35,897 nt of DNA from an uncultured archaeon (GTDB taxonomy: Archaea > Thermoplasmatota > Penumbrarchaeia > JASLWR01): contig CAYSHM010000004.1 in NCBI GenBank assembly GCA_964430885.1, positions 198,136 through 234,032 on the forward strand, given 5' to 3'. Each line of letters begins with the position of its first letter. Positions within the stretch are counted from its first letter, which is position 1. Made by a program: the position numbers and the translations under genes. Below the pieces are notes generated by a model, which searched no databases, had not been told where the DNA came from, and saw nothing but the letters and a program-made list of their open reading frames with translations. This document shows, piece by piece, positions 4,370 to 35,897 of this stretch.

Positions 4370-4426
4370 TTTGCATCGCCGTTATTTATCCTTTTCATCT
4401 GTTCAATTATTCTGCGCGGTCCTGCT

Positions 4427-6883: not shown

Positions 6884-6924
6884 TTGATGTCCTCGTTTTT
6901 TCGATAGATCGCCGTCAAGCTGAA

Positions 6925-8922: not shown

Positions 8923-9179
8923 TCATCTATGCCTCCGAAAACCCTTGGATCATTGGACGAATAATCACTGACAACCGTTTAACAGTTATTTATTATATGT
9001 ATGTAATATTATACCTCATTGATGATGAAATAGATGCATGAACCACAGCTGAAATACCATTGCAGCGATGTTTGCCTCAATTCAGGTCAAAAGTGAGCCG
9101 GAAACATAAATATAACGGAGACCAGTGGGTGAAAATCATAGGTAAATACTTAAACAATCGGCCAATAAACTCACTATTT

Positions 9180-16143: not shown

Positions 16144-16218
16144 GTAATAGAATACTTGATATTGTACCTCTTCGTTTAACCTCTGTTATTGCAACGGTTT
16201 TTAACCGGGGTGAAGTAT

Positions 16219-19200: not shown

Positions 19201-19761
19201 AGCAATTACCTTTCCTCGGCTCCCATGGGCGTAATAATAGCTATCGCAGTTGTATCACTTCTTCTGGTACTGGTCCTGATAACCCTGTTCGTCAGGTTAG
19301 GTAGGTTGAAGAAACATGCAAGGGATATAGAGGAAATGGAATACCGGGACCTTTCGGAACTTGAAGCCGAAATCGACAAGGAACTTGAAGGCCGAGAGTT
19401 CGAGAGGGAGGATAATGCAGCCTCTTTTGCTCCCAAGGAACTAGTAAGAGTAAAGACTTTACCTGTATCCAAGGATGAGGCTGACGACTATTCAAGTTTC
19501 GACGAACATGATGACGAGGTGGAACTGGCGGAACTGGCGGAACTGGAAGAATTGAAGGAAGTGGACGGCGGTGAAAAGAAAGTCAAGAGGGTAATGATGA
19601 AACCCCGGGCAAAGCTGGAATCCACCAAGCCCCTTGCTGATACTGGGGATGCCGGAAATGATGGGGGAATGGGTAATTATGATGCTGGCGGCAGTACCGA
19701 TGATGCCGATTCAGACGGTGGGATAGACCATAGTGTAGTCAAGATATTCGACGATGAATAA
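16219..19761 (+). CDS. Large single-pass surface protein: DOMON/CBM9-like domain, four Ig-like repeats, TSP3-like Ca-binding repeats, Asp/Thr/Gly stalk, TM, acidic tail
   Basis: Signal peptide MRKSIF...VNA; ITVDGDLSDW...TWDANKLYL...IYLDT...EISISWADLG; four ~110-aa repeats; DxDGDG repeats; TM MGVIIAIAVV...LFVR. No catalytic motif recognised. Confidence 0.8.
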   Translation: MRKSIFASSLFVTLLLAQLFLVFLPVNATTNHTITVDGDLSDWAADELMGISSSSTLNMTWDANKLYLSVSNQDWDANDGGEDGDLMIYLDTVSGGSNQTVNWDGQNTLPFQADWLFALEDSGYYNLREHNQSWISDKPYTGSVYAGYNGDNRTEISISWADLGNPTKLGVMVFAKWESANNVWAAWPTQNPTGNGPLSFTHYYFFVNIANGVSPNQAPILQGGAGELVNSGSDPNTNTAWVDIYPGTSADNNQGTQSNGGETDVWFFYTVNGGNPTDQSPAVAGTFDGQNGINGNNDKYYVIIPANSGATVKWFARGNASNGKECSSNVGVFVSNLPFWTGSKGNDAKTNTIWADVNPGTSADNNQGTQSDGSGTSMTFYYTLDNSQPNLFSNKITGIFDGQNGTNGNNDKYYAIIPASRGQHVRWFAWANASNGAYNFTGYGHFISQTVKDWAWIGGEGWNSDTNTVWLDVFPGSSYDDDPQTISDGSDTSMTFYYTLDGTQPNLLSNSVQGIFDGQNATYGNNDKYYAIIPASNSDTVKWFATCTSSSNGVNTSSIFTFQSNIPLDPSTIMGEGWDAETNTVQADVEPGTSADDDPGTISNGQGSAITFYFTTDGSSPTLGSSSVQGIFDSQNGTMGNRDRYYAIIPGSDGEIIKWFVQGHGKAAADATGGVETFVSSIGSSDVDTDGDGTPDNIDPDDDDDGMPDNWENNNGFDPLDDSDASGDGDNDGLTNLEEYLNSTYPDDEDTDGDGIPDGVEVDAGLDPLSNLDASLDRDSDGLTNAEEYGLGTGINDDDSDDDGIPDGFEEDNALDPLDALDASLDGDTDGLTNLQEYTHGTDPILSDTDSDGMSDGWEVDNSLDPKSNDAPLDPDDDGYTNLQEFIAGTNPKDPNSHPSGNGDDDNTGDDDATGDDDTTGDDDTTGDDDTSGDDDDSDDDSTGDDDITGNDDTTGDDDTSGNDDTTGNDDTSGDDDTTSGNGDSTGDRGSSSSSNYLSSAPMGVIIAIAVVSLLLVLVLITLFVRLGRLKKHARDIEEMEYRDLSELEAEIDKELEGREFEREDNAASFAPKELVRVKTLPVSKDEADDYSSFDEHDDEVELAELAELEELKEVDGGEKKVKRVMMKPRAKLESTKPLADTGDAGNDGGMGNYDAGGSTDDADSDGGIDHSVVKIFDDE
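16903..18261 (+). repeat. Four tandem ~110-aa domain repeats
   Basis: Each copy has TNTxxxDxxPGxSxD...FxxTxxxxxP...GxFDxQNxxxGNxDxYYxIIP...WF. Confidence 0.9.
18280..18915 (+). repeat. Bacterial TSP3-like Ca2+-binding repeats
   Basis: Alternating DxDxDGxPDxxE...LDP and DxDxDGLTNxxEY units with about 49-aa periodicity. Confidence 0.85.
18925..19155 (+). repeat. Degenerate 18-bp tandem repeat encoding G(D/N)DDx(T/S), 13 units (one 5-aa unit)
   Basis: GDDDNT GDDDAT GDDDTT GDDDTT GDDDTS GDDDDS DDDST GDDDIT GNDDTT GDDDTS GNDDTT GNDDTS GDDDTT. Confidence 0.9.
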
Positions 19762-21001: not shown

Positions 21002-21331
21002 TTACAATTTTCGATCTTTTGCCTTCTGTTTGAGGCGGTCCTTCCTTTTCTTGGCATTGAACCCCGTACCCTTGTCCAGGAACTGGCCGTATTTTCTTCG
21101 GCTGTCGATCCCTTCCTCGAACTCCACATCTGGATTCATGGTAACATTGACCACCAGCTCAGTTTTGGATTCCATCCAGGTCTCCATGGGTTTTATGGAC
21201 CCGTAGTTCACATAATATTTCCCATCCTTTTCGGACACATACTCCGCCCCGAATATATCCTCCAAAAGTTCGCCGAGCTTTTTCCCTTCAATTTTTTTCC
21301 ACTGTCCTCTTTTAATATCGTATTCAGTCAT
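21002..21331 (-). CDS. Conserved archaeal protein, DUF5611-like
   Basis: MTEYDIKRG...YGSIK...RRKYGQFLDKGTGFNAKKRK resembles a small conserved euryarchaeal/Thermoplasmata family. Confidence 0.7.
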   Translation of the reverse strand: MTEYDIKRGQWKKIEGKKLGELLEDIFGAEYVSEKDGKYYVNYGSIKPMETWMESKTELVVNVTMNPDVEFEEGIDSRRKYGQFLDKGTGFNAKKRKDRLKQKAKDRKL

Positions 21332-21594: not shown

Positions 21595-24012
21595 GTGGTC
21601 AAGAAAATGTCTGATTCAAAAAAGAAGGTGCTGATAACTGTAATAGTAATCTCAGTAATCATTTCCGGAGCTCTGATCTATGTCATCAATAATACTGGCG
21701 AGGACTTATCAACGATATCCATCTATGAGGTCTTAGGGATGACCTCGACGCGTAAGGGGTCAGAAAATGTCGTATTGGCTGGTGATTCGGACCCTTTCAA
21801 CGCCTTGGTCTGCACGCCTCTTTCCTGCTGGTATGATATTTCAGCAGGTTCATCTAGGCCTGATGGTCTAAGGCCTTTCCTGATAGCCAAGGACGGTAAA
21901 CTAGATGATACCCAGGAGCGGTTCATTACCAATTATAATAAGAATGGTTTCATAATAATAGGTAGTGTAAATAAGGATGGATTGAAATTCCAGGGGGGAA
22001 TTTCTGAGCAATCCCTTTCAGCAGCCCAGCACGAGTTCGAATCTGCTGCTGGAGTGATGATTGTTCATGGAAGCCAGGAAGGCTATGAGCTCGGTGTTTC
22101 CACAGCTCCTTTGGCCAGTTATCTGAACATACCTATTCTGATCATAGAGAACAATACAGATATGAGTATGATCAAAAAAGGGGTGAAAAAACTCGGTGCC
22201 AAATACTGCATTGCAGTTTCTGCAGAACCCCGGCAGATAGCTAAGAATATCGGATTGGACTCTATACTGGTTGGTGATCAAGACACCGCCATGGAACTGA
22301 ACCTGATAGCCGTTAAGGACCGCTTCGGATCCTTGAATTATTTGACCATGACAAATCCATCAGATGTCGTTCAGCCCTACATTGTGGATGTCCAGACGGA
22401 GACATTTCAGAATTCGGTGAACAATGTCAGATTGAAAACGGGGAGGATAAGCGCGGATATTGTAGGGGAATCCACCGAGACCTTTGATATCGAGGTCCCT
22501 TCGGGTCTAGATTTGGTACAGATATATGTGAATTTTACCAGTGTGAGTTCCACAATGCTCAATCCATTGAAGGAATCCCTGGATATTGAACCCCTGGTAT
22601 TTGGTTCCCTTTACGATGAGTCGGGAAACATTGCTTCATACGGTCCGAGCTTCAGCCTCGATCTCGGGAAAACATTTCTACAGACCTTAGCAGTAGATGC
22701 GCCGGGCAATTACAAACTGGAAGTGAGCGTGTATTACGGAACTGCCGGTTTCGATACCTATGCAGGCACTGAGCTGGGATTATCTCGGATCGATGCTGAT
22801 TATCAGGTGACCATTGTACACAATCAGCTGTCAAAACCTCATCATCCCATATTCGAGAGCTCATCAATGATGGCTCCTTATCTATCTGCGTCTCACGGGG
22901 GGATAACGATTGCTTCATCTAATTTCAGCCTCACCGATGAACGCTTTGCGCTAGAAGCCAAAGGTCATTCGACAGGCCCCTGGTATGATGCTGAGCTGAA
23001 TGATCTGGCCAATGCGAAGGTTGACCATAATGTTCAGGTTTTGGATAAGACAATGGCCAAGCTCATGGATCATGGAATGTATAATGATTACATCAATGGG
23101 TCCGCCTGGTTGGCGATATTGGGCGGAGCCAATATGATCCCAATGTATTATGAGCCTAAGGAAGCTTCCTGGGTTGAAGATCCGGTATATGGTGTTGGCT
23201 GGGCTACGGATCTCCGGTACAGCTTTGATAGTCAGTTGTCAACAGGGAGGCCATTAGGCCAAGACGTGGGTGACATATCTACGCTCATAGCCCGTACTCT
23301 GTTTTACGAAGAATATGCCACAGCTCATTCCAATAGTATTCAGGGCGAATACGGAAGCAGTGAGAAATGGCTGGATCATTTCCATTTTCTTGCAGGCGAA
23401 GGAGGAGGCCGAACGGGTTGGTTCTTCTGGCAGAGGACCTTTGCCCCGGAGGTGGAACAGCACGGCTTTACATCTGAAGTATATGTGCAGAATTACGAGA
23501 ACGACCGACAGAGCATGGAGTCATGGGGCGCATATGAAAGGGCGAATTATTTCGATCTGATGCTTCATGGCAACTGGTACTGGTATGTCCCAGAACTCAA
23601 CGGTTTTGACAGGTACAGCACCGGTGTAAAGGTCAGTGACATCATGACGAATCCCACAGAATGGGAGCTGGGACCCTCTGTGCTGAATTCAGGTGTCTGC
23701 ATTATGGGCCGTATAGACGGTATAAATCCGCGCCAATCCATAACAATGGCCTTTCTGCATGCAGGGATAAATGCCTTCTACAGTTCAACCAGATCGACAG
23801 GCTCGGAGGCAAAAGCAGGTACCATAGAGACAAGTCTGCTATACGATGATATCAGTGTGGGGGAGGCGCTGCGTCTGGACAAATTGACTAATACCGAACC
23901 TGCCGGTTATTATGTGCGTAATCTTTATGCGGATCCTGCTTTCAATCCCTACGAACCGGAGAATGGTTTCTCGGATCAGGGCAGGCCAGTACTGATACGC
24001 AATAATGAATGA
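21595..24012 (+). CDS. Membrane-anchored gingipain-like (peptidase C25, clan CD) protein
   Basis: N-terminal TM; APLASYLNIPIL (cell-wall-binding-repeat-2-like); C-terminal ILGGANMIP...TDLRY...TGR...MLHG...NSGVC...AFLHAG...SVGEAL...NLYADP, with a candidate His/Cys dyad. Confidence 0.6.
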   Translation: MVKKMSDSKKKVLITVIVISVIISGALIYVINNTGEDLSTISIYEVLGMTSTRKGSENVVLAGDSDPFNALVCTPLSCWYDISAGSSRPDGLRPFLIAKDGKLDDTQERFITNYNKNGFIIIGSVNKDGLKFQGGISEQSLSAAQHEFESAAGVMIVHGSQEGYELGVSTAPLASYLNIPILIIENNTDMSMIKKGVKKLGAKYCIAVSAEPRQIAKNIGLDSILVGDQDTAMELNLIAVKDRFGSLNYLTMTNPSDVVQPYIVDVQTETFQNSVNNVRLKTGRISADIVGESTETFDIEVPSGLDLVQIYVNFTSVSSTMLNPLKESLDIEPLVFGSLYDESGNIASYGPSFSLDLGKTFLQTLAVDAPGNYKLEVSVYYGTAGFDTYAGTELGLSRIDADYQVTIVHNQLSKPHHPIFESSSMMAPYLSASHGGITIASSNFSLTDERFALEAKGHSTGPWYDAELNDLANAKVDHNVQVLDKTMAKLMDHGMYNDYINGSAWLAILGGANMIPMYYEPKEASWVEDPVYGVGWATDLRYSFDSQLSTGRPLGQDVGDISTLIARTLFYEEYATAHSNSIQGEYGSSEKWLDHFHFLAGEGGGRTGWFFWQRTFAPEVEQHGFTSEVYVQNYENDRQSMESWGAYERANYFDLMLHGNWYWYVPELNGFDRYSTGVKVSDIMTNPTEWELGPSVLNSGVCIMGRIDGINPRQSITMAFLHAGINAFYSSTRSTGSEAKAGTIETSLLYDDISVGEALRLDKLTNTEPAGYYVRNLYADPAFNPYEPENGFSDQGRPVLIRNNE

Positions 24013-24073
24013 ATTCCTGAAATTGTCGAGACAAGAAAATGATATATTGGTTTCAATCATGTGAGGATTGGAT

Positions 24074-26101
24074 ATGATCAGAGGACGGAGGAAAACCAAA
24101 AATTGGTACTCATTGTTATTATTTGCAGTTTTATTATTGGCCGTTGATGTTTTCGTCCCATCAACATCCGGCGGCCTTGATGGTAATACCGGTGGATTAT
24201 TGGAACATCCCCCGAATAATGCCGGTTATCAAATGAACTTTACCAGTTATCATTCCTATGAGGAATTGAGTGACATTCTTGCAGACGTTTCTAAAAAATA
24301 TTCGAATATTGCCTGTCTGTATTCTATAGGTAAAACCTATGAGGGAAGGGATGTCTGGGCTCTCAAGATATCCGATAATCCGGCAGAACATGAGCCAGAT
24401 GAAACTGAGGTTCTCTATATAGGAATGCATCATGCTCGGGAGTGGATAACTCATGAGATACCACTCTATTTTATAAATTATATAGTAAATAATTACGGCA
24501 TCGATCCCTGGACCACTTACATAGTGAATAACCGTCAGCTTTGGATAGTACCTATGCTGAACCCGGATGGTTTTGTTTACGACGGCAATGGAGATTATAA
24601 CAATAGGAATAATTGGCGGAAAAATCGCGAACCGAATTGGGACGGGTCTTTCGGGACGGATCTGAATCGAAATTATGGTTGGCACTGGGGGGAGTTGGGT
24701 TATCAAGGTTACTTCAATCCTCGAAGAGAGGATTATATTGGACCCTATGATACTAGTGACGATGACGGAGATATTCGTATAAATGAGGACCCCATGGATG
24801 GCCTAGATAATGATGGAGATTGCAGGATCGATGAGGATCCCAGAGGCGGTTTTTCAACAGCCGAGACAAGAATCATTCGGGATCTTGCAGCGGACCATGA
24901 TTTCAGGATATCCATGGCCTATCATAGTTATGCGGAGACAATATACTGGGGGTGGATGTATACACGTCAACTTCCTCCTGACGAACAGCTTTACAAGCAC
25001 ATTGCTGAGGGGATCAACAGGTACAACGGCTATGAATATCGAAATTACACTGAGGAGGATAGGAATCGAAAAGGCCCTCTGGTTGACGGCGACCTTAATG
25101 ATTACCTGTATGGGGCTCACGATATTCTATCATTCTGTATCGAGGTAGGAAGTGAGGCAACAGGCGGTTTTTATCCTCCAGAGAATATGATAATTCCTCT
25201 ATGCGAACTGAACCTTTTGCAAAATCTATATGTGGCAGAAGTGGCAGCAAATCCTTGGGAGAAACGATTTAAAATCGAACACATTCCTCTTGAAAATACT
25301 ACTGAAGCCGATGGACCTTACACAGTAACCGTAAAAGTAACAAGTTTCAGCAGTTTAGAACTGCAAAATGAAGGTTTAGAGTTGGCTTATTCGGAGGATG
25401 GTATTCTATATGAGAAGATAAAGATGACTTCTACTGGAAATCCCAGTGAATATGCAGCGGAGATTCCCGAACAATCCGCCGGTTCAACCATACATTATTA
25501 TATATCTGCAATTTCCAAGGAAGAATTCATCACCACCTCTCCTAGGTATGCACCTGAGAGAGCTCATCAATTCACTGTAACAGGTGGATTAGGGGGTGCA
25601 AATCCAATTTTAACCAAGGTTCATGGTTTTTTCATGATAGGGACATCAATAGTTTTTGTCATTGCAGGTATTTTTGCATTTTTATTTTTGAAGGATATGA
25701 CCGCCAAGAAACTTGCTAGAACTATTAGGACAACTATTTTAGGTTCTTTATTCCTTTTCATTGGTGGATTTCCATTGGGATGGGCCGTAGCTTATCAGGA
25801 ATTTGGGTCACCTTGGTTTGGTTTTCCTTTTGGATGGGACCTAGTGGATAATATTACTTTGATTCTTTTCATTTCATGGCTGGCGCCTCTTCTCTATTTT
25901 AGAAAAAACCTGAGAAAATACTTGGCGAGTGTTGCATCGGGAATCAATGGAGCTTCTTCAGGCAAATCTTCAATGGACAAAACGCAAGAAACTGAAGGAC
26001 AAAAATACGATTACTCAAGAGTTAGACTTTATTCTACTTTTGTATTGGTTTTGGCAATGATCACAGTATTAATTATGTTGGCCCTGCCCCATGGTTCTTG
26101 A
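24074..26101 (+). CDS. M14 zinc carboxypeptidase (carboxypeptidase-T-like) with Ig-like domain and C-terminal TM helices
   Basis: HHAREW (HXXE), NPDG, WRKNR, DLNRN, YHSY, IEVG. Signal peptide and about four C-terminal hydrophobic helices. Confidence 0.9.
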   Translation: MIRGRRKTKNWYSLLLFAVLLLAVDVFVPSTSGGLDGNTGGLLEHPPNNAGYQMNFTSYHSYEELSDILADVSKKYSNIACLYSIGKTYEGRDVWALKISDNPAEHEPDETEVLYIGMHHAREWITHEIPLYFINYIVNNYGIDPWTTYIVNNRQLWIVPMLNPDGFVYDGNGDYNNRNNWRKNREPNWDGSFGTDLNRNYGWHWGELGYQGYFNPRREDYIGPYDTSDDDGDIRINEDPMDGLDNDGDCRIDEDPRGGFSTAETRIIRDLAADHDFRISMAYHSYAETIYWGWMYTRQLPPDEQLYKHIAEGINRYNGYEYRNYTEEDRNRKGPLVDGDLNDYLYGAHDILSFCIEVGSEATGGFYPPENMIIPLCELNLLQNLYVAEVAANPWEKRFKIEHIPLENTTEADGPYTVTVKVTSFSSLELQNEGLELAYSEDGILYEKIKMTSTGNPSEYAAEIPEQSAGSTIHYYISAISKEEFITTSPRYAPERAHQFTVTGGLGGANPILTKVHGFFMIGTSIVFVIAGIFAFLFLKDMTAKKLARTIRTTILGSLFLFIGGFPLGWAVAYQEFGSPWFGFPFGWDLVDNITLILFISWLAPLLYFRKNLRKYLASVASGINGASSGKSSMDKTQETEGQKYDYSRVRLYSTFVLVLAMITVLIMLALPHGS

Positions 26102-26261
26102 TTTTCATATGACGGTTTTCATACGTTTTTTATTCTTTTCGTAAATTTATAATTGAACTAAATAATAAATAGTAGAATTGAAGTTAATTATTGATGGTTT
26201 AACGCCATTTCAAGTAGTAATGAAATAGGCAGTTTTGATAATAATTAAAGGTTCTGATAAA

Positions 26262-29200
26262 ATGATGAACTCGATGCCCATTAAAATTATTTCCAAATCA
26301 TGCTGTGTAATAATGGTTTTAAGCCTACTACTGATCTCTTTTATATCGGGGCATATGATCCATTCTCAAAATGATATAGAAGCCAAAATAGGGGAAATGA
26401 AAGGGAAGGATCCTTACTTGGAACAGGGTAAGACCCGTATTCTTGAGGACTACCGTGAAAATCTCAATGCGCAGTACAGCTGGATAGATATCACAGGCAC
26501 AGGTTCACAATTATCCCTGACCGACGATGATTATCAGTCCATAAACATGGGGATCAACTTCAATTTCTATGATCAGACCTATACCAGTGTCCATATCTGT
26601 TCCAATGGATACCTGGCATTTGTTGACAATAACAATCTATGGGAGTATTCTAATTCTCCTTTTCCAACGGTTGACCATCCTTTTATGATCTCTCCTCTTT
26701 GGGATGATCTGAACCCCGGGAACGGCGGAAGCATTTGGTATGATACTCTCAGCAATCCAAGCCGTTTTGTAGTGTCTTGGGAAGCGGTCCCCCATTACCC
26801 CTCCGACGGGAGCAATACATTTCAGGTCATACTTTTCGAGGGCAGCGGCATAATCAAGTTCCAGTATCAGGCCCTGCATGCCGGGAACTCCCCCACGGTC
26901 GGGCTCAACCACGGGGATAATATTCATTACAATAATCCTCTAAACCAGAACCCTGCCACACCCAGCGCCATGCAGTTTTATCTAATTATACCTCCGATAC
27001 CTGACAATTTGGGTATGCCCAAGGAGGACTTATTCTACAACACCTGCTTTGCGGGTCTGCCTTATAATATAGGTGTTGCTCTTACAACCTACGAGGGTTT
27101 GAATGATATAGATGATCTGAAGCTTCTGATGGATTACAACACTACCAACATTTCCATTGGCTTTGACGGCAATAACGAGCTTTTCTACAAGGAGAACGAT
27201 CCCTCAGATATGATGGCTCTTCTTAATGACTGCGATTATCACAACGATGGTGTGGACAAGTGGTGGCTTAACTTCTCCATCATGTTCAATTTCAATTTCC
27301 CCCATGAGAGGCCCATAGACATCAAGGTTATCAGCCTTGGGAACTGCGGGATGACTGAAACCTTTACATTTTCCAACGTGATGCAGGTTGAGAATGATTT
27401 TGAGTTCACCGGCGTTCCAAAGATGACCGGCGAATTTGCCGGAAATATTCAGGAGGATGATTGGGTCAGGGGGGATGAGGGGATCACTCTGGAGGACCTA
27501 AGGGTGAACTATGAGGGTGCCGAAAGTCTTTTTCCCGATGATGATCTATTCGATGTGAGGCTTTGGGATACCCAAGGTAATGAATGGTGGGATAACGGCA
27601 GTTCGGGGAGGGATGTTCTTATCAATTTCACCACTAGGAATGTAGTGGATGAGAATGAGGAGATAAATATAAAGATAGTAAATATTCCTGGCATCGGCGC
27701 CTGCCAGACCAACATCACATTTCCCCTAAAGGTGGACGGTGAGGCCCCTTCAGCCCCTGAAGAGGTGCTGTGTCATGCATACGGCAGGGTCACCGAATAC
27801 ACCAATGAACCAGGCATCAATGTTTCCTGGGACCAAGTTGCAGATAACGGTTCCGGACTTTCAGGTTATTACTATTCGAGACATAATTATCAGGGCACAC
27901 CCAATGGAAGCTTCACAGAGCTTACCGAAGGTATGGTCAGGAGTATGTCCGAAGGCTGGCATGAGATCTTCGTTTGGTGCGAGGATAATGTAGGTAATAT
28001 TGGCTTATCCAATTCGGCTGTACTCCAGGTAGATCTCACAGATCCAATGTTCTCCAACAGCACCCCTGATGACGGCATATGGCATAACTCATCCAAACTT
28101 GACTGCTCCATTGAGATAAGTGATCTTGGGGGAACGGGAGTTGACGGGGAATCCATATTTTATTCCCTTTCTACGGCCGGCCCCAATCAGTTCAGTGCCT
28201 GGATACCAGTCTGGGTTTCTGAATCCGCGGAGAAGATTACGCCAAGCGTAAAATGCAGTTTTGAGGAAGGTGATGATAATTATATTAAATGGCGGGCCAT
28301 GGATGTTTCCGAGAACGGCTTTGTGGAATCTCTGCCTTTCAATGTTAAGGTTGATGTATCCCCAATTGAATTCTCCGAAGATATCACACCGTCCTTGAAC
28401 TGGTTCACTCAGGAGGAGATAACCATCGAGATAACCGCCGGTGATGACGGCGGAAGCAAGATCGACCATTCCTCCATAGAGGTAAGGTTCGCTAGATCTG
28501 GCCTTTCTGGTTTCGGCCCATGGATCAAGGTCAATGAGGGGAATATCACCGAGGCCAAGAACGGAGAATGCAAGATATCAGTTGCTTTCATGTTCTCCGA
28601 GGGGAAGGATAATCATATACAGTTCAGAGGTACTGATGGTGCTAACAATCCCAAATCCGAATCAGAGGTATTTGATATCAAGGTGGATCATTCACCAGTC
28701 TATTTCGGTGAGTTCGAGTTGGAGGATATAGATGAACCACCTGAAGCGGAGTTCACCCTTGAGATATTCGATGACGAATCCGGTGTCAATGTGGATACCA
28801 TTGAATATTCCATCTCCACTGAAGGTTCGGAGGATACGGATTTCGGTGATTGGAAGAAGGTGGCGGCCATGGATATATTCCCGGGCACCCCTGTAATAGT
28901 GGATATGAAGGAGGATCTCGACTGGGGCAGGGATAACTATATTAGATTCAAGGCCGACGACAATGTTGCTGCTGGTCCTGTTACATCAAAAGTCTATAGA
29001 ATAAATATTACCTCAACTCCGGAAGCGGACATCCTGCCTCTTGGAGCCATTCATTTCAAGGAGGGCGACGTGATAAACTTTGACGGTACTGGGTCAGCTG
29101 ATAAAGATGGGGATGTGATCACCTACAGGTGGGAATCCAACTTAACCGGGCCTTTGGGGAACAATTCCACGATCCAGGTAATATTAGAACCTGGGAATCA

Positions 29201-30221
29201 TACCATTACTCTTTTTATCACCGATGTTGACGGCAATACTGCTACGGATGATGTTATTGTTGATATTGCCAAGAAAAAAGAGGACAAAGGAGGTGGGCTG
29301 TTCAATGTGGGCGGAGGCAGTGGTGGTGGATTTGGATGGTGGTGGTGGATAATTATAATTGCCGTGGCAATACTACTTATTCTGATACTGATATTTGTAA
29401 TAATTATTGTCCGAAGAAAAAGGAAAAAAGAAGAAGAGCAGGCTCGGGAACCTGAACCCTTCAAACCGGCCCATCAGAAACCTGGTTATACTCCGGGGCC
29501 CAGGACTTCAGCTCCTGGTGGGTCTGTTCCTTATCCCGCACAGAACTTTCAAGCTCGGGGAGCTTCGCCTCAACAAGCTTCTCCAGGCCCCCAAACTCCC
29601 TTACCTCAGCCCCTAGCTCTGCCCGAGTTAACACCACTAGGCCCGGAACCTTCCAGTAGCCCGCAGCTCCCGCCTCCAGCTCCCGATGGTGCTCCTCAAT
29701 ATTCCCTTCCTGCATTCTCCACCCAAAACGGTGAACAGGATCTGAATAGAATGGCCCTGCCTCCAGCTCCTGATGAAAATCTCGATGATAATGCGGAAGG
29801 TGCAAAGGATGATGAGGAGACATTGAAGCCATTACCTCCTGAGCAGGAGGGGAAACTTGCCTCCCCGGAGGCTAAAATCCCACCAAAACCCACTCCGCCG
29901 GAATCTGCTGGCCCTGATAAACCCAAACCTCCTTCACCGGAAAAACCCAAGAAGGATTCCCTTGATGATGTTTTCGGAATGCTTGAGAACCTCGTCCCGG
30001 AAAAGAAAGAGGATGGGGTTAAATCCGCTCCTGAATCCAAACTTCCTGCCCCTCCTGAAAAACCATCTCTGCCCAAACCTCCTACACCCGAACCGAATGC
30101 TATGGAATTGAACCTGCAGTGTCATGAATGCGGAGGCGACTATATTGCAATGGTGGAGAAATTTCCGGTTCTGGTAACATGTCCACACTGTGGAGTGGAG
30201 GGAGAGATAGAGGGAATTTAA
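26262..30221 (+). CDS. Giant single-pass surface protein, paralog 1: NIDO-like head, Ig/FN3/PKD stalk, TM, Pro-rich tail, Zn ribbon
   Basis: Head FNFYDQTY...SNGYLAF...PLWDDL...FVVSW...TFQVIL; PKD-like FDGTGSADKDGD...GNHTITL; TM WWWWIIII...RRKRKK; C-terminal CHEC...CPHC. Confidence 0.85.
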   Translation: MMNSMPIKIISKSCCVIMVLSLLLISFISGHMIHSQNDIEAKIGEMKGKDPYLEQGKTRILEDYRENLNAQYSWIDITGTGSQLSLTDDDYQSINMGINFNFYDQTYTSVHICSNGYLAFVDNNNLWEYSNSPFPTVDHPFMISPLWDDLNPGNGGSIWYDTLSNPSRFVVSWEAVPHYPSDGSNTFQVILFEGSGIIKFQYQALHAGNSPTVGLNHGDNIHYNNPLNQNPATPSAMQFYLIIPPIPDNLGMPKEDLFYNTCFAGLPYNIGVALTTYEGLNDIDDLKLLMDYNTTNISIGFDGNNELFYKENDPSDMMALLNDCDYHNDGVDKWWLNFSIMFNFNFPHERPIDIKVISLGNCGMTETFTFSNVMQVENDFEFTGVPKMTGEFAGNIQEDDWVRGDEGITLEDLRVNYEGAESLFPDDDLFDVRLWDTQGNEWWDNGSSGRDVLINFTTRNVVDENEEINIKIVNIPGIGACQTNITFPLKVDGEAPSAPEEVLCHAYGRVTEYTNEPGINVSWDQVADNGSGLSGYYYSRHNYQGTPNGSFTELTEGMVRSMSEGWHEIFVWCEDNVGNIGLSNSAVLQVDLTDPMFSNSTPDDGIWHNSSKLDCSIEISDLGGTGVDGESIFYSLSTAGPNQFSAWIPVWVSESAEKITPSVKCSFEEGDDNYIKWRAMDVSENGFVESLPFNVKVDVSPIEFSEDITPSLNWFTQEEITIEITAGDDGGSKIDHSSIEVRFARSGLSGFGPWIKVNEGNITEAKNGECKISVAFMFSEGKDNHIQFRGTDGANNPKSESEVFDIKVDHSPVYFGEFELEDIDEPPEAEFTLEIFDDESGVNVDTIEYSISTEGSEDTDFGDWKKVAAMDIFPGTPVIVDMKEDLDWGRDNYIRFKADDNVAAGPVTSKVYRINITSTPEADILPLGAIHFKEGDVINFDGTGSADKDGDVITYRWESNLTGPLGNNSTIQVILEPGNHTITLFITDVDGNTATDDVIVDIAKKKEDKGGGLFNVGGGSGGGFGWWWWIIIIAVAILLILILIFVIIIVRRKRKKEEEQAREPEPFKPAHQKPGYTPGPRTSAPGGSVPYPAQNFQARGASPQQASPGPQTPLPQPLALPELTPLGPEPSSSPQLPPPAPDGAPQYSLPAFSTQNGEQDLNRMALPPAPDENLDDNAEGAKDDEETLKPLPPEQEGKLASPEAKIPPKPTPPESAGPDKPKPPSPEKPKKDSLDDVFGMLENLVPEKKEDGVKSAPESKLPAPPEKPSLPKPPTPEPNAMELNLQCHECGGDYIAMVEKFPVLVTCPHCGVEGEIEGI

Positions 30222-30313
30222 ATTGGTTGATAGGATACAACAGGATCTGAATGAAGTTGTTGTTCGGATTCAAAACCAAGAGCAGTCTATAGAACTCTTT
30301 TCTAGGTGAATCC

Positions 30314-33300
30314 ATGCTTTACAATAAGACAATCAGATTTTCCGGATCATTCCTAGCGGTGATTTTGTATATTGTTTTGTCATTCTTTATTTTAACAACC
30401 TCATTGACCCCTGTGGGATCTTTTTTCTTCTCGGATCGATATGCCAAGAAGGTAGAATCAGTTCAAACAGACCATACCGTAAATGTGCATGACACCCGTG
30501 CCCTCCAGCCCGATGTTCTTTATTATAGCTTCGAGGACGGTGGAGGCAACACTGTTACAGACATGTCTGCCGGCGGAGGCAACGACGGCACCCTTCAAGG
30601 GACCTCATTTACTAACGATGCCAAGTACGGCAGCTATGCTTTGAGCTGTCCGGCCGGCAACCAAAACCATCTGTCGGTCGGCGGCAACATCAACAACCTG
30701 CATATGCAGAGTGCATATACTTTCATGTGCTGGTTCAAGGGATCCCAGCCTGGAAGAAAAGGGGCCATGATGTTCGGAGACTGCTGTACCAATCGTAACG
30801 GGTACACCATGAACGTATACGCTAATGAGATCAGGTTCTGGGGTGGATCGGATGTCAATAATAATAACTACAACACCTATGCCAACAATATCAATGTTTA
30901 TGACAATAACTGGCACCATATCGCCATCAGGTGCAACAATGTAAATCTCCAGATCATTGTGGACGGAATAGTCCGCACGGCCAACGGGCAGCCGAATGTC
31001 CCCACATCTCCAGGGGCCGCACAGGGTTCCCACTGTGACACCGATCCGAGTTTGGGAGGGGATCCAATATCGGGAAATAACGAGGTCCATGCTCTGATAG
31101 ATGAGGCGGCAGTCTTCTCAAGGTATCTTTCCAACCAGGAGATACAGGAAGCAATGGAAGGACTAAGGCCAGTCCCGGTTCCCGAGAATGTAGTGGCGGA
31201 GGACACGGATAACGGAACCTGTTATGCACAATACAGACCTTACAGAATCAAACTTAATGTTACCTCGCCCAGGGAGCTGAACGATATTGCCGAGGTGCAG
31301 ATGTACCTGGACTACAACACCACAAATTCAACACTATGCTATAACTGGACCCGGGATGAGTTCTTTGAGCTTCAGGACGAGGACGGCCATGTGGACCTGA
31401 TAACCAACATGTGCGATGTTACCAATAACGGGATAGATAAGTGGTGGCTTAACTTTACCATAATGATCAACTTCAGTTTTCCCCATGAGGATTGGGTCGA
31501 CTGCTACGTGAATCTTACCGCCAATGACGGCGAGGTGTTCTCCAAGCGTTTCCCTTGGCTCTTTCATGTGGAGAATGATCTAGATTTTTCCGGGGTGCCG
31601 ACCTATACAGCTGAATATCAGGGAGTGCTGGATTCAGGATACTGGGTCAGGGGTAACGAGACAATCATCATAACGGGCCCTATAGTCCATTACCAGGGAG
31701 TACCTGACATTTATCCGGCCGATGATCTCTATGATGTGCGGCTGACCGACCAGGGGGGCGGTGTATGGTGGGACAATATGAGTCATGGGGAAGAGGTATG
31801 GATAGAGATCCAATCCCGAGACGTAGTAGATGAGAACGAGCTCCTGTACATAACAATAGTGAACATACCTGAAGAGGGCTTCTGCATAACCAATTTCTCT
31901 TTTTCCCTTAAGATAGATTCATCTCCGCCGCTGCCCCCTGCGTCCATATCGACCCATGCTTACGGCAAGACCTCTCCATTCACAAAGGATCCCAGTATCA
32001 ATCTTTCATGGCAGGAGGTACCGGACAATGCTTCCGGCCTTTTGGGTTATTATTACTCCAAATCCAACAATTCATATACTGATAACGGCACCTATACCGA
32101 TCTTACAGAGGGTGAGGTCAGGGGGCTTCACGAGGGCAGGAACGAGCTATTTGTTTGGTGTGAGGATAATGTGGGCAATATAGGTTCGGCTCGTTCTGTT
32201 AATATTCTGGTGGACCTTACGGGTCCTTCTTTCTCAAATTTCACCCCCTCGTCGGTCATTTGGCAGAACTTAACCACGCTTGACTGTTCGGTGGAGATAC
32301 AGGATCTCACAGGCACGGGAGTTGACGGTGGTAGTGTATTCTATTCGATATCCACGGCCGGCCCTAATACATTCAGTTCATGGGTTCCTGTATGGGTTCC
32401 TGACGGCGGGGAGCGTATAACGGTGGAAGCAAAATGCAAGTTCGAGGAGGGAACTGACAACTACATCAAATGGCGTGCGATGGATGCCGCAGAGAACGAT
32501 TTCACGGAATCCGAACCCCACAATATCATGATAGATGTTTCGCCAGTTGAATTCAGTGAGAAAATCGAACCTCAGAAGATTTGGTTTGACACCACACATA
32601 TCACCAGCACGGTCTCTGTTATGGATGAAGGCGGGAGCGGGGTTGATACCGAGACCCTGCAGGTCAGGTTCTCCCGTGATGGGGAGGCGTCGTTCAGCCC
32701 GTGGCTCCCCATAGCCCCGAAAAATGTGTCCCAGACCCGTGGTGACCAGGTGATCCTGAGTGCGACATTCGAGTATGAAGAGGGCAGCGGAAACCTGATA
32801 CAGTTCAGAGGGACAGACGTATCCGGGAACTCAATGGTATATTCAAAGAAGTTTGGAATTCAGATAGATATGACCCCTGTAGCCTTTTCGGATTTTGAGG
32901 TTTTCGAAAAGGAGGATCCGGAGGATGTTGAATGCGGAATATTCATCTGGGATGATCATTCGGGAGTTGATCTTAACAGTATAGAATATTCAGTATCCAC
33001 CGACGGGGACGACAACGATACTTTTGGAGATTGGGATAAGGTAGAGCCACATTTCATATTCCCTGGATACCCCGTGAGGATAGATTGCGATGTGGAATTG
33101 GATTGGGGCAGGGATAACTATGTCCGTTTCAGGGCCGATGATGTGATGGGGTCAGGGGAAATAATCTCCGACATATACCGGGTCAATATTACATCCGAAC
33201 CGCGGGCGGTGATAACCCTTCCAGCCGAAAAACGTCAGGAATATAACGTATCCGACATCATACTTTTCGACGGTTCCTCCTCATGGGACAGGGACGGTGA

Positions 33301-34519
33301 TGATCTTAGTTTCTACTGGGAATCCAATATCTCCGGCGGTATAGGTTTAAATTCAACCATTGAGATAAATCTCAGCAAAGGCAACCATACTATCACTCTT
33401 TATGTGTCTGATGCAGATGGCAACAACAGAACGGACCGGGTACTGGTGGATATAAAGGGTTTATCTGGTGAAGGAGGAAAAACAGGTGATGATGACGATG
33501 ATACCGGCGGCGGTATTGCCGATGCTGGTGGTGGAGGCGGGATATGCTGGTGGTGGATAATCGTATTGATAGCGGTATTGCTGCTGCTATTTCTTATACT
33601 GTTGCTGGTGATCAGGAGACGGAAAAAACGGGAGGAAGAGGAGGAAAAACAGCGTCTATTGGCCGAAAGACAGAGGCGGCTGCAGACCCAGGCCGCCCGA
33701 AGGGCTTATACACCTCCCGCAGGTCCGGCGGTCGGCACCTATGTTCAGCCTGGAACTCAGTCCTACCCCCCTGCAAGCGGTGTAAGATACAATGTCCAGT
33801 TCCAGAGACCTGTGCCCCCGGCACCCACACCAGGATATGTATCAAATGCACCTTCACTGCCTGCACCACCAGTACAGCGCCCGGCACTGCCGCAGTATTT
33901 TCCGGCACCAGTCCCTGCAGCTTCAAGAGCGCAGGATGAACTCCTTAAAGCACTGCCGTCTCCGCCGGATGCACCTGAAGCGCCCCAGTACCAGCTACCT
34001 ACTTTCTCTACGGACGAGGGAGAGCAGGACCTGAACTTAATGGCACTTCCACCAGCCCCGGATGATTCAGTAGGTTCCGAAGATGTCAAGGACGCACCAG
34101 ATTTGCAGGAAAAATATATTCCTCCGGCCCCTGGTTCTCCACCTCCCAGTACAGAGGACAAGGTAGAGGAGAAGAAATATATAGAAGGTGAGAAAAAGGA
34201 CAGGGACATATCAATAGATTCAGTTTTCGGGGTGCTTGACAGTCTGGTCTCTGAACCAAGGGATTTACCGTCTCCAGAAGAAGATAGGCTCCCTGCCCCT
34301 TCAATATCTCCTGAAGAACCTACCCCTCCGGCCGATCTCCCCTCTCTCCCCACCCCGCATGATGCCTCTTCAGGGCTTGCCGCTGACGGTTTGGAACCCC
34401 GAGAGATCTCCCTGCAGTGTCATTCCTGCGGCAGGGAATATCCGTCTCTTGTGACCGATCTACCTGCAATTGTCACCTGCATATACTGTGGAGAAAAAGG
34501 ACAGATCGGCTCCCTTTAG
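30314..34519 (+). CDS. Giant single-pass surface protein, paralog 2: LamG-like head, same stalk/TM/tail/Zn ribbon
   Basis: AGGTGA RBS; head YYSFEDG...YTFMCWFK...WHHIA...VDG...IDEAAVFSRYLS; stalk colinear with paralog 1; C-terminal CHSC...CIYC. Confidence 0.87.
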   Translation: MLYNKTIRFSGSFLAVILYIVLSFFILTTSLTPVGSFFFSDRYAKKVESVQTDHTVNVHDTRALQPDVLYYSFEDGGGNTVTDMSAGGGNDGTLQGTSFTNDAKYGSYALSCPAGNQNHLSVGGNINNLHMQSAYTFMCWFKGSQPGRKGAMMFGDCCTNRNGYTMNVYANEIRFWGGSDVNNNNYNTYANNINVYDNNWHHIAIRCNNVNLQIIVDGIVRTANGQPNVPTSPGAAQGSHCDTDPSLGGDPISGNNEVHALIDEAAVFSRYLSNQEIQEAMEGLRPVPVPENVVAEDTDNGTCYAQYRPYRIKLNVTSPRELNDIAEVQMYLDYNTTNSTLCYNWTRDEFFELQDEDGHVDLITNMCDVTNNGIDKWWLNFTIMINFSFPHEDWVDCYVNLTANDGEVFSKRFPWLFHVENDLDFSGVPTYTAEYQGVLDSGYWVRGNETIIITGPIVHYQGVPDIYPADDLYDVRLTDQGGGVWWDNMSHGEEVWIEIQSRDVVDENELLYITIVNIPEEGFCITNFSFSLKIDSSPPLPPASISTHAYGKTSPFTKDPSINLSWQEVPDNASGLLGYYYSKSNNSYTDNGTYTDLTEGEVRGLHEGRNELFVWCEDNVGNIGSARSVNILVDLTGPSFSNFTPSSVIWQNLTTLDCSVEIQDLTGTGVDGGSVFYSISTAGPNTFSSWVPVWVPDGGERITVEAKCKFEEGTDNYIKWRAMDAAENDFTESEPHNIMIDVSPVEFSEKIEPQKIWFDTTHITSTVSVMDEGGSGVDTETLQVRFSRDGEASFSPWLPIAPKNVSQTRGDQVILSATFEYEEGSGNLIQFRGTDVSGNSMVYSKKFGIQIDMTPVAFSDFEVFEKEDPEDVECGIFIWDDHSGVDLNSIEYSVSTDGDDNDTFGDWDKVEPHFIFPGYPVRIDCDVELDWGRDNYVRFRADDVMGSGEIISDIYRVNITSEPRAVITLPAEKRQEYNVSDIILFDGSSSWDRDGDDLSFYWESNISGGIGLNSTIEINLSKGNHTITLYVSDADGNNRTDRVLVDIKGLSGEGGKTGDDDDDTGGGIADAGGGGGICWWWIIVLIAVLLLLFLILLLVIRRRKKREEEEEKQRLLAERQRRLQTQAARRAYTPPAGPAVGTYVQPGTQSYPPASGVRYNVQFQRPVPPAPTPGYVSNAPSLPAPPVQRPALPQYFPAPVPAASRAQDELLKALPSPPDAPEAPQYQLPTFSTDEGEQDLNLMALPPAPDDSVGSEDVKDAPDLQEKYIPPAPGSPPPSTEDKVEEKKYIEGEKKDRDISIDSVFGVLDSLVSEPRDLPSPEEDRLPAPSISPEEPTPPADLPSLPTPHDASSGLAADGLEPREISLQCHSCGREYPSLVTDLPAIVTCIYCGEKGQIGSL

Positions 34520-34693
34520 GCTATGACCAATAGGACTGATGGTTCCCAGATTCTTGAAACTCCTTCTTCCAGTCCTATGCATTTGTTGGTTTTCTATTTA
34601 TATTTCAGAAAATTATTAAATAAATTGTGAACAATAATAATAGGAAGAAATAACAATGTAATGATCTCATTGATATCAAATGGTGGGCCGCCT

Positions 34694-35897
34694 ATGAAAA
34701 AAAAATATTTGTTTCTGATAACAATATCGATCACGATGTTGTTCCTTATGCCGGGTTTATTTTCAGATATTTCCCGTAAAAGCGATATCAAGGTTGATGA
34801 GGTAGGACCGGTCCAAGAAGATAAGTCTGACCCGATGGGGGAAAAACGAGGGACCCTTCATCCCTTCAGCGGCGGCTGGGTTGCCATCACTTCCGGCGGT
34901 GTTGAGAGATATTATGACCGTACACCCCGCAGGGACCAGCAGCATACCAGTGCCTGGTATTATAATGACGCTATAAGCAAGAACGGTAATATTCCCACAT
35001 ACCAGCAGATGATAGACTGGATGCAGAACTGGGGCTGCCAGAATGTAGGCGGGAGTGCGGATATGACATACCTTAATCGGGAGAATCCCCTTGATCTCAG
35101 ATGGACTGACCGCCCCTGCTGTTCATGCGAGGGCGATATCACCGAGAACTCACCCCCCAGGACCAGCGGCAACGGTGGTATTATCTACGGATGGGACACT
35201 CTCTACGCGACCTGTATAATGTCAGAGGCCGCAGAGCTCCGGACCGATGAGGGAGATGATCTTGTATGCTATGCCAGGTACAAACCCTACACCCTCAGGG
35301 TCAAGGTGAACACCATTGACGATCTGAACGATGCGGAGGAGGTCAAGGTATACTTGGATTATAACACCACCAATGCAAGCTTCTGCTACAACTGGGGGAA
35401 TGAGACCTTCTACAAGATGCAGGATCCCGACAACCATGTGGAGCTCCTTGTCAACGAGTGCGAGATATCCAATGATAATTCGGAATTCTGGTTTCTGGAT
35501 TTCACCTTCATAATCGATTTTGCCTTCCCCCACGAAGAGTTGGTGGATTGCTTTATAGACACCCAGGCCAAGAACGGGGATGATTCCAGGGATTTTTTCC
35601 CTTGGTTGTTCAGGGTGGAGAAGGACGTTTCATTCTCGGGTTTTCCCCTTGCCGAGGGTGAGTTCCAGGGTTCTCTCCTTGAGAACCGATGGGTCAGGGG
35701 GAATGAGGGGATTCGGTTCGACAATCTGACGGTCAATTACCAGGGGGCACCGGAAAAGTTTCCTGAAGATGATTACTTCGATGTTAAGATCACCGACACC
35801 CTGGGCAACACTTGGTGGGACAATGTATCTTCAGGTCAGCCTATGGTCATTGATGTGGAGACAATGAACATCACAAATGAGGAAGAGGAATATACCA
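34694..35897 (+). CDS. Giant surface protein, paralog 3 (truncated by window end), different Cys-rich head
   Basis: Not in the ORF track. My translation is open for 401 codons: MKKKYLFLITISITMLFLMPGLFS...CYARYKPY...YLDYNTTN...FPHEE...WVRGNE...DDYFDV...WWDN, the same stalk motifs as paralogs 1 and 2. Confidence 0.88.
   Translation, partial: MKKKYLFLITISITMLFLMPGLFSDISRKSDIKVDEVGPVQEDKSDPMGEKRGTLHPFSGGWVAITSGGVERYYDRTPRRDQQHTSAWYYNDAISKNGNIPTYQQMIDWMQNWGCQNVGGSADMTYLNRENPLDLRWTDRPCCSCEGDITENSPPRTSGNGGIIYGWDTLYATCIMSEAAELRTDEGDDLVCYARYKPYTLRVKVNTIDDLNDAEEVKVYLDYNTTNASFCYNWGNETFYKMQDPDNHVELLVNECEISNDNSEFWFLDFTFIIDFAFPHEELVDCFIDTQAKNGDDSRDFFPWLFRVEKDVSFSGFPLAEGEFQGSLLENRWVRGNEGIRFDNLTVNYQGAPEKFPEDDYFDVKITDTLGNTWWDNVSSGQPMVIDVETMNITNEEEEYT

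Follow-up and report, generated by a model that had tools for sequence, protein, structure and literature searches.

We analyzed a 35,897-nt stretch of DNA (hereafter the window) from a marine Thermoplasmatota archaeon (assembly GCA_964430885.1, contig CAYSHM010000004.1, positions 198,136 to 234,032). The final 9.6 kb of the window are occupied by three tandem open reading frames (ORFs) on the same strand that encode paralogous, predicted surface proteins. Each has a different N-terminal domain (the head) on a common chassis: a stalk of seven immunoglobulin (Ig)-like domains, D1 to D7, of which D1 and D2 form the neck, followed by a membrane helix and a tail. Our results indicate that the head and D1 are probably passed down as an orthologous unit, and that the chassis from D2 onward is probably homogenized between paralogs within each genome. 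We refer to this genome, which is 91.6% complete, as G000 and to the contig that carries the window as C4. The features of the three genes are listed by position in the window.

26262..30221 (+): paralog 1, NIDO-headed, complete (ORF list; database form P0005, 1319 aa, from the ATG at 26262)
30314..34519 (+): paralog 2, LamG-headed, complete, 1401 aa (ORF list, Pfam)
34661..35896 (+): paralog 3, with a Cys-rich head, 412 aa, cut by the end of contig C4, which is the end of the window
26586..26840 (+): NIDO-like core of head 1, residues 118-202 (PF06119)
30656..31147 (+): Laminin_G_3 / ConA-like head of copy 2, residues 115-278 (PF13385)
34766..35266 (+): orphan Cys-rich head of copy 3, tentatively C-type-lectin-like (phmmer, model and structure match)
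27045..27689 (+): neck of copy 1, two beta-sandwiches (D1, D2) with DYNTTN, FPHE, WVRG and WWDN
31220..31864 (+): neck (D1-D2) of copy 2 (alignment)
35267..35896 (+): neck of copy 3, where source-sample contigs fork into two ~92%-identical versions
27690..29320 (+): stalk domains D3-D7 of copy 1, five beta-sandwiches (AlphaFold2, predicted local distance difference test [pLDDT] 87.6, all-beta)
about 29052-29249 (+): PKD domain, the last domain (D7) of the copy 1 stalk (PKD_4)
29337..29411 (+): transmembrane helix of copy 1, WWWW plus a hydrophobic run, then RRKRKK
33548..33613 (+): transmembrane helix of copy 2
29412..30218 (+): predicted cytoplasmic tail of copy 1, Pro-rich and disordered
about 29694-29789 (+): conserved linear motif in the copy 1 tail
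about 30105-30218 (+): C-terminal CxxC...CxxC zinc ribbon of copy 1
34400..34516 (+): C-terminal zinc ribbon of copy 2

The three proteins are homologous from a sharp junction onward. In a three-way alignment, identical columns were near zero in the first 200-300 residues and became dense from Cys 271 of copy 1, in a region that takes in DYNTTN, FPHE, WVRG and WWDN. A stalk query matched copy 2 with an E value of 9.5e-243. The junction codons of copies 1, 2 and 3 are at 27045, 31220 and 35267, in agreement with the alignment and with a preliminary description of the window, which had reported three same-strand paralogs with a sharp junction. That description had also called the proteins giant, too strong a word for 1.3-1.4 thousand residues. 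The ORF of paralog 1 is also open from a TTG at 26235, which would give 1328 aa.

The heads of the three paralogs were unrelated to each other, as had been proposed. Head 1 matched Pfam NIDO (PF06119; 33.9 bits, E 4.1e-8, cut-off 25) over profile positions 2-109 of 186 and is thus a partial or divergent NIDO domain. Head 2 matched Laminin_G_3 (PF13385; 53.7 bits, E 3.4e-14, cut-off 27.6) over positions 2-151 of 151. Head 3 matched no Pfam family, even at E values up to 1, and the ESM Atlas gave no usable match for it; a phmmer search of 1.84 billion representatives found seven related proteins, four of them below 1e-10. Residues 31-146 of a model of head 3 aligned with the C-terminal domain of Bd2740 (8oks_B; Z 8.6, root-mean-square deviation 3.6, 106 of 111 residues aligned), and the model also aligned with carbohydrate-recognition domain 4 of the mannose receptor (1egg_A; Z 7.4, 100 residues aligned); Z scores of 7-8 are near the background of the tool. 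We tentatively assign head 3 a C-type-lectin-like fold. Profile-profile comparisons (hhalign) of the NIDO, LamG and Cys heads gave probabilities of at most 0.4% for each pair.

We defined head types for the whole family by clustering the heads of 31 genes from four family genomes (G000 to G003) plus database members. There were ten types: GATA (12 members), LamG (10), T2 (8), Cys (7), OLF (7), NIDO (6), T4 (6), T7 (4), N8 (2) and LTD (1). The LamG, C-type-lectin-like, NIDO and LTD heads are lectin-like, OLF is propeller-like (with weak hints of the same for T2 and N8), and three types look alpha/beta. A hint of ThuA for the alpha/beta heads was below threshold (E 0.037). The best of 45 head pairs compared by hhalign was T4-GATA, two alpha/beta-looking heads, with a probability of 38% (E 3.4e-4), which we considered too weak to indicate remote homology. 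We also did not use weak leads from the ESM Atlas that linked the GATA head to DUF4960 clusters (0.93, with 136-139 shared features, under the 170 typical for family members).

The chassis begins with a neck that is followed by further beta-sandwich domains. From N to C terminus, a complete family protein consists of a hydrophobic signal sequence, a head of 200-360 residues, the neck, further stalk, a Gly/acidic linker, the membrane helix, the tail and a zinc ribbon. The neck has 215 residues, and 35 columns are invariant across eight G000 copies. We made AlphaFold models of head 3 plus neck (pLDDT 82.1 overall, neck above 90, head part about 77-89) and of the 786-residue stalk of copy 1, which contained seven beta-sandwiches, the two of the neck plus D3-D7. 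In the models, the first strand of D1 begins ~20 residues upstream of the sharp sequence junction. Foldseek searches with the two models returned generic matches only, Ig strings such as titin, DSCAM, pilins and GhpA; those for head plus neck were Ig, pilin and Fab structures. D7 of copy 1 was above the cut-off for PKD_4 (30.1 bits, cut-off 27); D7 of copy 2, which aligns with it, was under the cut-off for PKD (14.6 bits, cut-off 23.5). From seven Ig-size domains, we estimate a rod length of ~25-30 nm.

The proteins are, by predicted topology, type I membrane glycoproteins. The stalks are acidic beta-sandwich rods with 17-28 N-glycosylation sequons each (2.2-3.5 per 100 aa), an enrichment of 2-3.5-fold over the genome mean of 0.99 per 100 aa. 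Heads had 0-0.9 sequons per 100 aa (0-2 each) and tails 0-0.5 (0-1 each). Such a distribution is consistent with a stalk that is coated with glycans, a head that is bare and exposed, and a tail that lies in the cytoplasm. The membrane helix starts with WWW and is directly followed by RRRKK (positive-inside). We found no archaeosortase (PGF-CTERM-type) C-terminal signal in the proteins; 185-301 residues and the ribbon lie past the membrane helix.

The tails, 185-301 residues long with 17-24% proline, share short elements. A loose motif, Y.LP.F.T..G.Q[DE]L..[ML]ALPP, was present in 14 of 30 tails, across genera, and a stricter version in six of the seven complete G000 members and in one of 23 members from G001-G003. 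A CxxC...CxxC zinc ribbon was at the extreme C terminus of 28 of the 30 complete members. The two without it have retained the remainder of the tail and are possibly cases of natural truncation (C34c in G000, at C34:18449-22555 on the minus strand, and the gene at 11687 on contig C87 of G002). Zinc-ribbon tails were also found on about ten other large G000 ORFs. Against the zinc-ribbon families of Pfam, the best score of the tail ribbon was 17.7 bits (cut-off 34.4).

The neck is widespread in the class and is, judging from domain order, a class-wide adaptor that joins very different heads to an Ig-rich membrane-anchored stalk. A neck profile matched 36 of 41 related genomes (G000 included), usually in several copies and with up to 36 matches per genome. 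In an even sample of the phylum, it matched 57 of 201 genomes at E values of 1e-5 or below, including 35 of the 36 other genomes of the class, and there were clear matches in three other families. Other families of the class contributed 24 genes, in which the neck sits 260-780 residues from the N terminus and follows FG-GAP, SBBP+DUF7948 or Kelch propellers, M28 peptidase plus LTD, and others. The presence of the neck behind so many other heads indicates that domain shuffling built the family.

The family appears to be undescribed. A profile search with the neck gave no matches in Pfam or among PDB sequences, and no Pfam family covers the family as a whole. Two relatives are public metagenome-assembled genomes (JASLWR01, CAYFHS01), and all 47 database relatives are unnamed or annotated as hypothetical protein. 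We found no published description in the literature. This agrees with the preliminary description, in which the family was not recognized as a described archaeal system.

G000 has at least nine family genes with seven head types. We scanned the 1583 G000 ORFs of at least 200 aa and found the neck motifs in eight: three in the window, two on contig C16 and three on contig C34. Further pieces are two 5'-open C-terminal fragments (at the end of C34 and the start of C44) and one 3'-open N terminus on C44. The heads are NIDO, two LamG, two Cys-rich and LTD (36.1 bits, cut-off 34.3), plus GATA, T7 and T4, which match no Pfam family. The head of the C44 N terminus is 80% identical to head 3 in protein and 76-77% in DNA. 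Contigs C4, C44 and C34 probably belong to a single array with the head order NIDO-LamG-Cys-Cys-T7-GATA-LTD.

Metagenome contigs from four DNA runs of one marine study, two of them possibly from the source sample, bear on the break at the end of C4. A long source-sample contig stops where the head of copy 3 meets the stalk (35286), and past this position there were two versions, with 0 versus 8-15 differences per 150-180 nt and depths of 10-14 versus 19-21. The second version is probably a second Cys-type paralog and the reason for the assembly break. Apparent joints in metagenome contigs were rejected as rearrangements; they had short sides and 85% likeness, and we read them as cross-matches of Ig repeats or of other organisms.

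Parts of these proteins also occur in other combinations in G000. The NIDO head type is on a different chassis at C20:7964-12364 (31% identity), and the neck opens a PA14/CARDB protein on C9. Directly downstream of both C16 family genes are three genes of 1330-1352 aa (C16:29568-41926, minus strand) that share only the membrane-proximal domains, membrane helix, tail motif and zinc ribbon and differ in their N termini; one is olfactomedin-like (PF02191, 24.2 bits, cut-off 23.9). The sharing of only the membrane-proximal half and tail indicates that the chassis itself is modular. An alignment of the regions upstream of the three window genes revealed no common promoter-like block. Between the LTD- and GATA-headed genes is a 365-aa gene (C34:13450-14547, minus strand) that looks SPFH/band-7-like by eye; it has no homolog in the arrays fetched from G001-G003, and we do not count it as part of the system.

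The heads are conserved between genomes. Six of the seven G000 head types (all except LTD) recur in G001-G003, with 44-74% cross-genus identity (BLAST) and gene order partly kept, and the same head types are seen across three genera with an orthologous D1. The order LamG-GATA-T7-T4 is common to G001 and G003. Two flanking genes are also shared: an AsnA ortholog (83-84% identical), separated from the array by ~5 kb in G001 and G003 and by ~10 kb in the window, and a gene flanking the C16 array (C16_28597) that recurs after the array on C87 of G002. Apart from these two, the array loci retrieved from G001-G003 contained no counterpart of most G000 flanking genes. In a tree of LamG heads there were two cross-genus groups, each with 100/99 support, and head 2 grouped with LamG genes of G001 and G003. 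Three ordinary orthologs chosen for comparison were 51%, 67% and 76-84% identical. The head identities are within this range, and vertical inheritance is therefore sufficient to account for them, with no need for recent transfer.

There was no sign of a store of alternative heads in G000. We searched the genome with the heads (blastn) and found no spare cassettes: NIDO had no match, LamG had weak matches to its paralog on C16 (C16a), and Cys matched only the C44 paralog. RVT_1 reverse transcriptase was not found in the 91.6%-complete genome, and the controls were positive. With no RVT_1 and no extra head copy except the C44 paralog, the genome does not show the marks of a diversity-generating retroelement, and with no silent partial head copies, it does not show those of cassette-based antigenic variation.

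The stalks, in contrast to the heads, group by genome. We inferred a careful maximum-likelihood tree of 31 stalks (760 columns) and trees of separate regions by a quick method. In the stalk tree, seven of the eight G000 copies formed one clade whatever their heads (support 96/100), and the main-array copies of another genus formed a separate clade (96/99). G001 and G003 genes paired by head type. A 42-member database set had the same pattern, with adjacent genes that have different heads carrying sister stalks. Trees constrained to a single clade of LamG, T4 or T7 stalks had log likelihoods lower by 283-517 and were rejected (approximately unbiased [AU] test, p <1e-37). The head and stalk trees thus disagree.

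The switch from head-type to genome signal is inside D2. Over D1, D2, D3-D4 and D5-D7, trees required 13, 16, 16 and 17 head-type changes and 17, 13, 9 and 8 genome changes, respectively. D1 rejected a G000 genome clade (AU test, p 0.004). For D3-D7, the genome clade was supported at 99.8, and T2, OLF, NIDO and GATA clades were rejected (p 1e-3 to 9e-56). Pairwise identities had the same pattern. Pairs with the same head in different genera (n=23) had mean identities of 57% in the head, 58% in D1 and 46% in D3-D7; pairs with different heads in the same genome (n=107) had 51% in D1 and 59% in D3-D7; and pairs with different heads in different genera (n=228) had 49% in D1 and 46% in D3-D7. A scan in 50-residue windows put the crossover of the two signals at stalk residues about 125-200, which in copy 2 places the switch at about 31670-31820, and the genome signal continues from D2 through the membrane helix and tail. 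In the same genes, the head and D1 follow head type, and this provides an internal control for artefacts of composition.

Recent gene conversion was evident at the 3' ends of neighbouring genes. The neighbours C16a (LamG head) and C16b (T4 head) are 72.6% identical in DNA in an alignment that starts at the junction. Within it, a tract of ~400 nt in the tail is 91-97% identical, versus 60-75% elsewhere. Third codon positions in the tract are 92% identical, compared to 28-47% in upstream parts and 71% at the end of the tail, where the zinc ribbon is; this third-position identity indicates recent conversion and not purifying selection. We screened all family genes of the four genomes, within each genome, for tracts of 100 nt or longer with an identity of 88% or more and found three: 702 nt (89.9%) in G000, 389 nt (91%) in G002 and 260 nt (94.6%) in G003. 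All three are between adjacent genes with different heads and at the 3' end, and none is at the heads.

Based on these results, we believe that this is probably an undescribed family in which heads and D1 are orthologous, the chassis is gene-converted from D2 onward, and the whole serves as a display platform for ligand-binding heads. Domain shuffling would have put unrelated heads onto one common chassis. The head and D1 would then be passed down across genera as a unit, and the part from D2 to the ribbon would be homogenized by conversion between neighbouring paralogs within each genome. Conversion would halt where homology ends, and so would not extend into the heads and seldom into D1. The conserved gene order and flanks favour conversion of stalks in place over relocation of heads with D1. 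The chassis would be a shared display and anchoring platform that holds a fixed set of heads above the membrane; the lectin-like, propeller and alpha/beta heads may differ in the ligands they bind, for example the surfaces of particles or polymers, other cells, or substrates; and the common tail may link every copy to one cytoplasmic partner or sorting route.

Several points weigh against this explanation. The AU tests were run after the trees had been seen, and the trees of the regions were made by the quick method. Trees cannot formally separate conversion of stalks in place from movement of heads with D1 onto local stalks. Copies 1 and 2 of the window have no recent tract, with at most 68% DNA identity per 150-nt window. 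The G000 array is split over contigs, and its copy number and order are partly reconstructed. For the display function, domain types and topology are the sole basis, and the three alpha/beta-looking head types could be enzymes instead of binders. The C-type-lectin assignment of head 3 leans on Z scores of 7.4-8.6, which are near background.

The heads might sense or grip ligands as outside-in receptors or anchors, with the tail motif and ribbon coupling the paralogs to one cytoplasmic partner. The partner might be cytoskeletal, sorting or signalling, by analogy with the function of GltJ, and homogenization of the tail would then reflect co-evolution with it. This is compatible with the display platform described above and adds to it a claim of signalling or coupling. 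The C4 ribbon in 28 of 30 members and about 10 further large G000 ORFs, and the linear motif in 14 of 30 tails across genera, are what such coupling would lead one to expect, and the tail is exactly the part covered by the strongest tracts of recent conversion. GltJ itself is described as uniting a membrane module with a zinc ribbon in the cytosol and a disordered linker that carries a binding motif (PMC11135422). However, the ribbon does not reach the Pfam zinc-ribbon families (17.7 versus 34.4 bits), two members lack it, and tracts at 3' ends may simply mark where conversion starts between tandem genes. We regard this added claim as a possibility of rather low probability. A related and equally doubtful idea is that the chassis is a lineage-specific, co-evolving docking platform, in which all paralogs would share one stalk-and-tail standard for side-by-side assembly or for one cytoplasmic machine. 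If so, it would be an archaeal counterpart of adhesion-receptor or focal-adhesion coupling, and selection, and not only neutral conversion, would keep the switch in D2 between the head with D1 and the part from D2 to the ribbon.

Continuing exchange of tips between copies or strains, by which polymorphic adhesins would diversify for antigenic or ligand variation, is improbable. This was the interpretation in the preliminary description, and it would account for unrelated heads on homologous stalks, for the conflict between head and stalk trees, for the neck behind many other heads across the class, and for the NIDO head on another chassis in G000. The Cys head is also duplicated and, if the second read version is the paralog, has diverged faster than the start of the stalk (76-77% versus ~92% DNA identity). 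However, head types recur in three genera with orthologous D1 and partly kept order and flanks, their cross-genus identity of 44-74% is that of ordinary orthologs, the 91.6%-complete genome has no silent head copies and no RVT_1, and every recent tract found is at a 3' end and none at a head. Within the family, the head set is largely fixed across genomes, a finding that the preliminary description had itself named as contrary to tip exchange. Its picture of a multigene repertoire of surface proteins, with unrelated binding-type heads on a homologous chassis, stands; that of ongoing exchange is not supported, as the heads recur across genomes.

We find it hardest to credit a mainly structural coat, in which the stalks would be the glycocalyx or canopy of a wall-less archaeon, homogenized for packing, with heads secondary: the high copy number per genome (one relative has as many as 36 neck matches), the sequon-laden acidic beta-sandwich rods and the genome-by-genome concerted evolution of the chassis would suit a coat, but the heads are conserved like ordinary orthologs or above the stalks, which speaks for the heads as the working part on which selection acts, and there is no archaeosortase-type C-terminal signal.

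The window also carries genes outside the array. A 1190-aa membrane-anchored surface protein of a different design is encoded 6 kb upstream of the array (16189-19761, plus strand); it has repeated CHB_HEX_C-like units (PF13290, E 5.5e-10), bacterial TSP3 repeats, a long T/S-G-D-D-D run, a membrane helix and an acidic tail with no zinc ribbon. Directly upstream of the array and in the same orientation are genes for a peptidase C25-like protein of the gingipain family (21595-24012, plus strand, 805 aa) and an M14 zinc carboxypeptidase (24068-26101, plus strand, 677 aa). In G003, the M14 ortholog (67% identity) is immediately after a distant neck-bearing gene on contig C15. A small DUF5611 protein (21002-21331, minus strand; PF18446, E 5.9e-23) is encoded between the GTPase and peptidase genes. 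A glycogen/alpha-glucan cluster at 2849-10880 (GH77 4-alpha-glucanotransferase, GH57 plus DUF3536, GH13 branching-enzyme-like with CBM48, and phosphorylase-like) is unrelated to the surface-protein array.

Uncultured marine Thermoplasmatota are abundant heterotrophs, and the family bears on how they contact particles, polymers and other cells. It supplies about ten conserved types of surface head, a catalogue from which proteins could be expressed and screened for ligands, and the unannotated neck domain marks such proteins across the whole class. It is also a clean natural case of concerted evolution bounded inside a protein, in which the boundary would part copy-specific constraint (head and D1) from genome-wide constraint (stalk, membrane helix, tail and ribbon). 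The conserved, predicted cytoplasmic tail hints at a putative link from the surface to the interior in archaea.

The design resembles, in part, those of known adhesion systems. Integrin alpha chains are type I adhesion receptors with a head, Ig-like leg domains, a single membrane helix and a cytoplasmic tail. The family likewise has a head (class-wide often an FG-GAP propeller) on Ig-like domains, one membrane helix and a tail. The tail is unlike that of integrins, and the likeness is one of shared common domains only. We know of no equivalent of the integrin beta subunit for this family.

As a repertoire, the family is analogous to the MAT fibres of Bdellovibrio bacteriovorus, which are described as a set (13 + 8) of ~1000-aa surface proteins that share a fibre chassis and differ in their adhesive tips (PMC10769870). 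The Bd2740 domain, the best structural match of head 3, is reported to be a variant C-type-lectin fold at the adhesive tip of a MAT fibre (PDB 8oks; PMC10769870). In contrast to the window family, MAT proteins are bacterial, trimeric beta-prism/beta-helix fibres with a C-terminal tip and, as far as that account goes, no membrane helix or cytoplasmic tail (PMC10769870). In the window family, the heads are at the N terminus of a string of Ig-like domains, and we saw no sequence relationship between the two families.

The cytoplasmic end invites comparison with GltJ and ZitP, described as having a small C4 zinc ribbon at a cytoplasmic terminus and a disordered linker with a short binding motif (PMC11135422). 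The ribbon of GltJ is reported to be N-terminal, paired with GYF, and to have the bacterial partners MglA, MglB and AglZ (PMC11135422), whereas the ribbon in the window family is C-terminal and has no GYF. The analogy with GltJ is a functional one.

Long-lasting concerted evolution by gene conversion, with paralogs within a genome more alike than orthologs, has been described in prokaryotes (PMC6053082). The family described here differs in that the conversion would be bounded inside a multidomain protein, extending from D2 to the C terminus, and the head and D1 stay orthologous.

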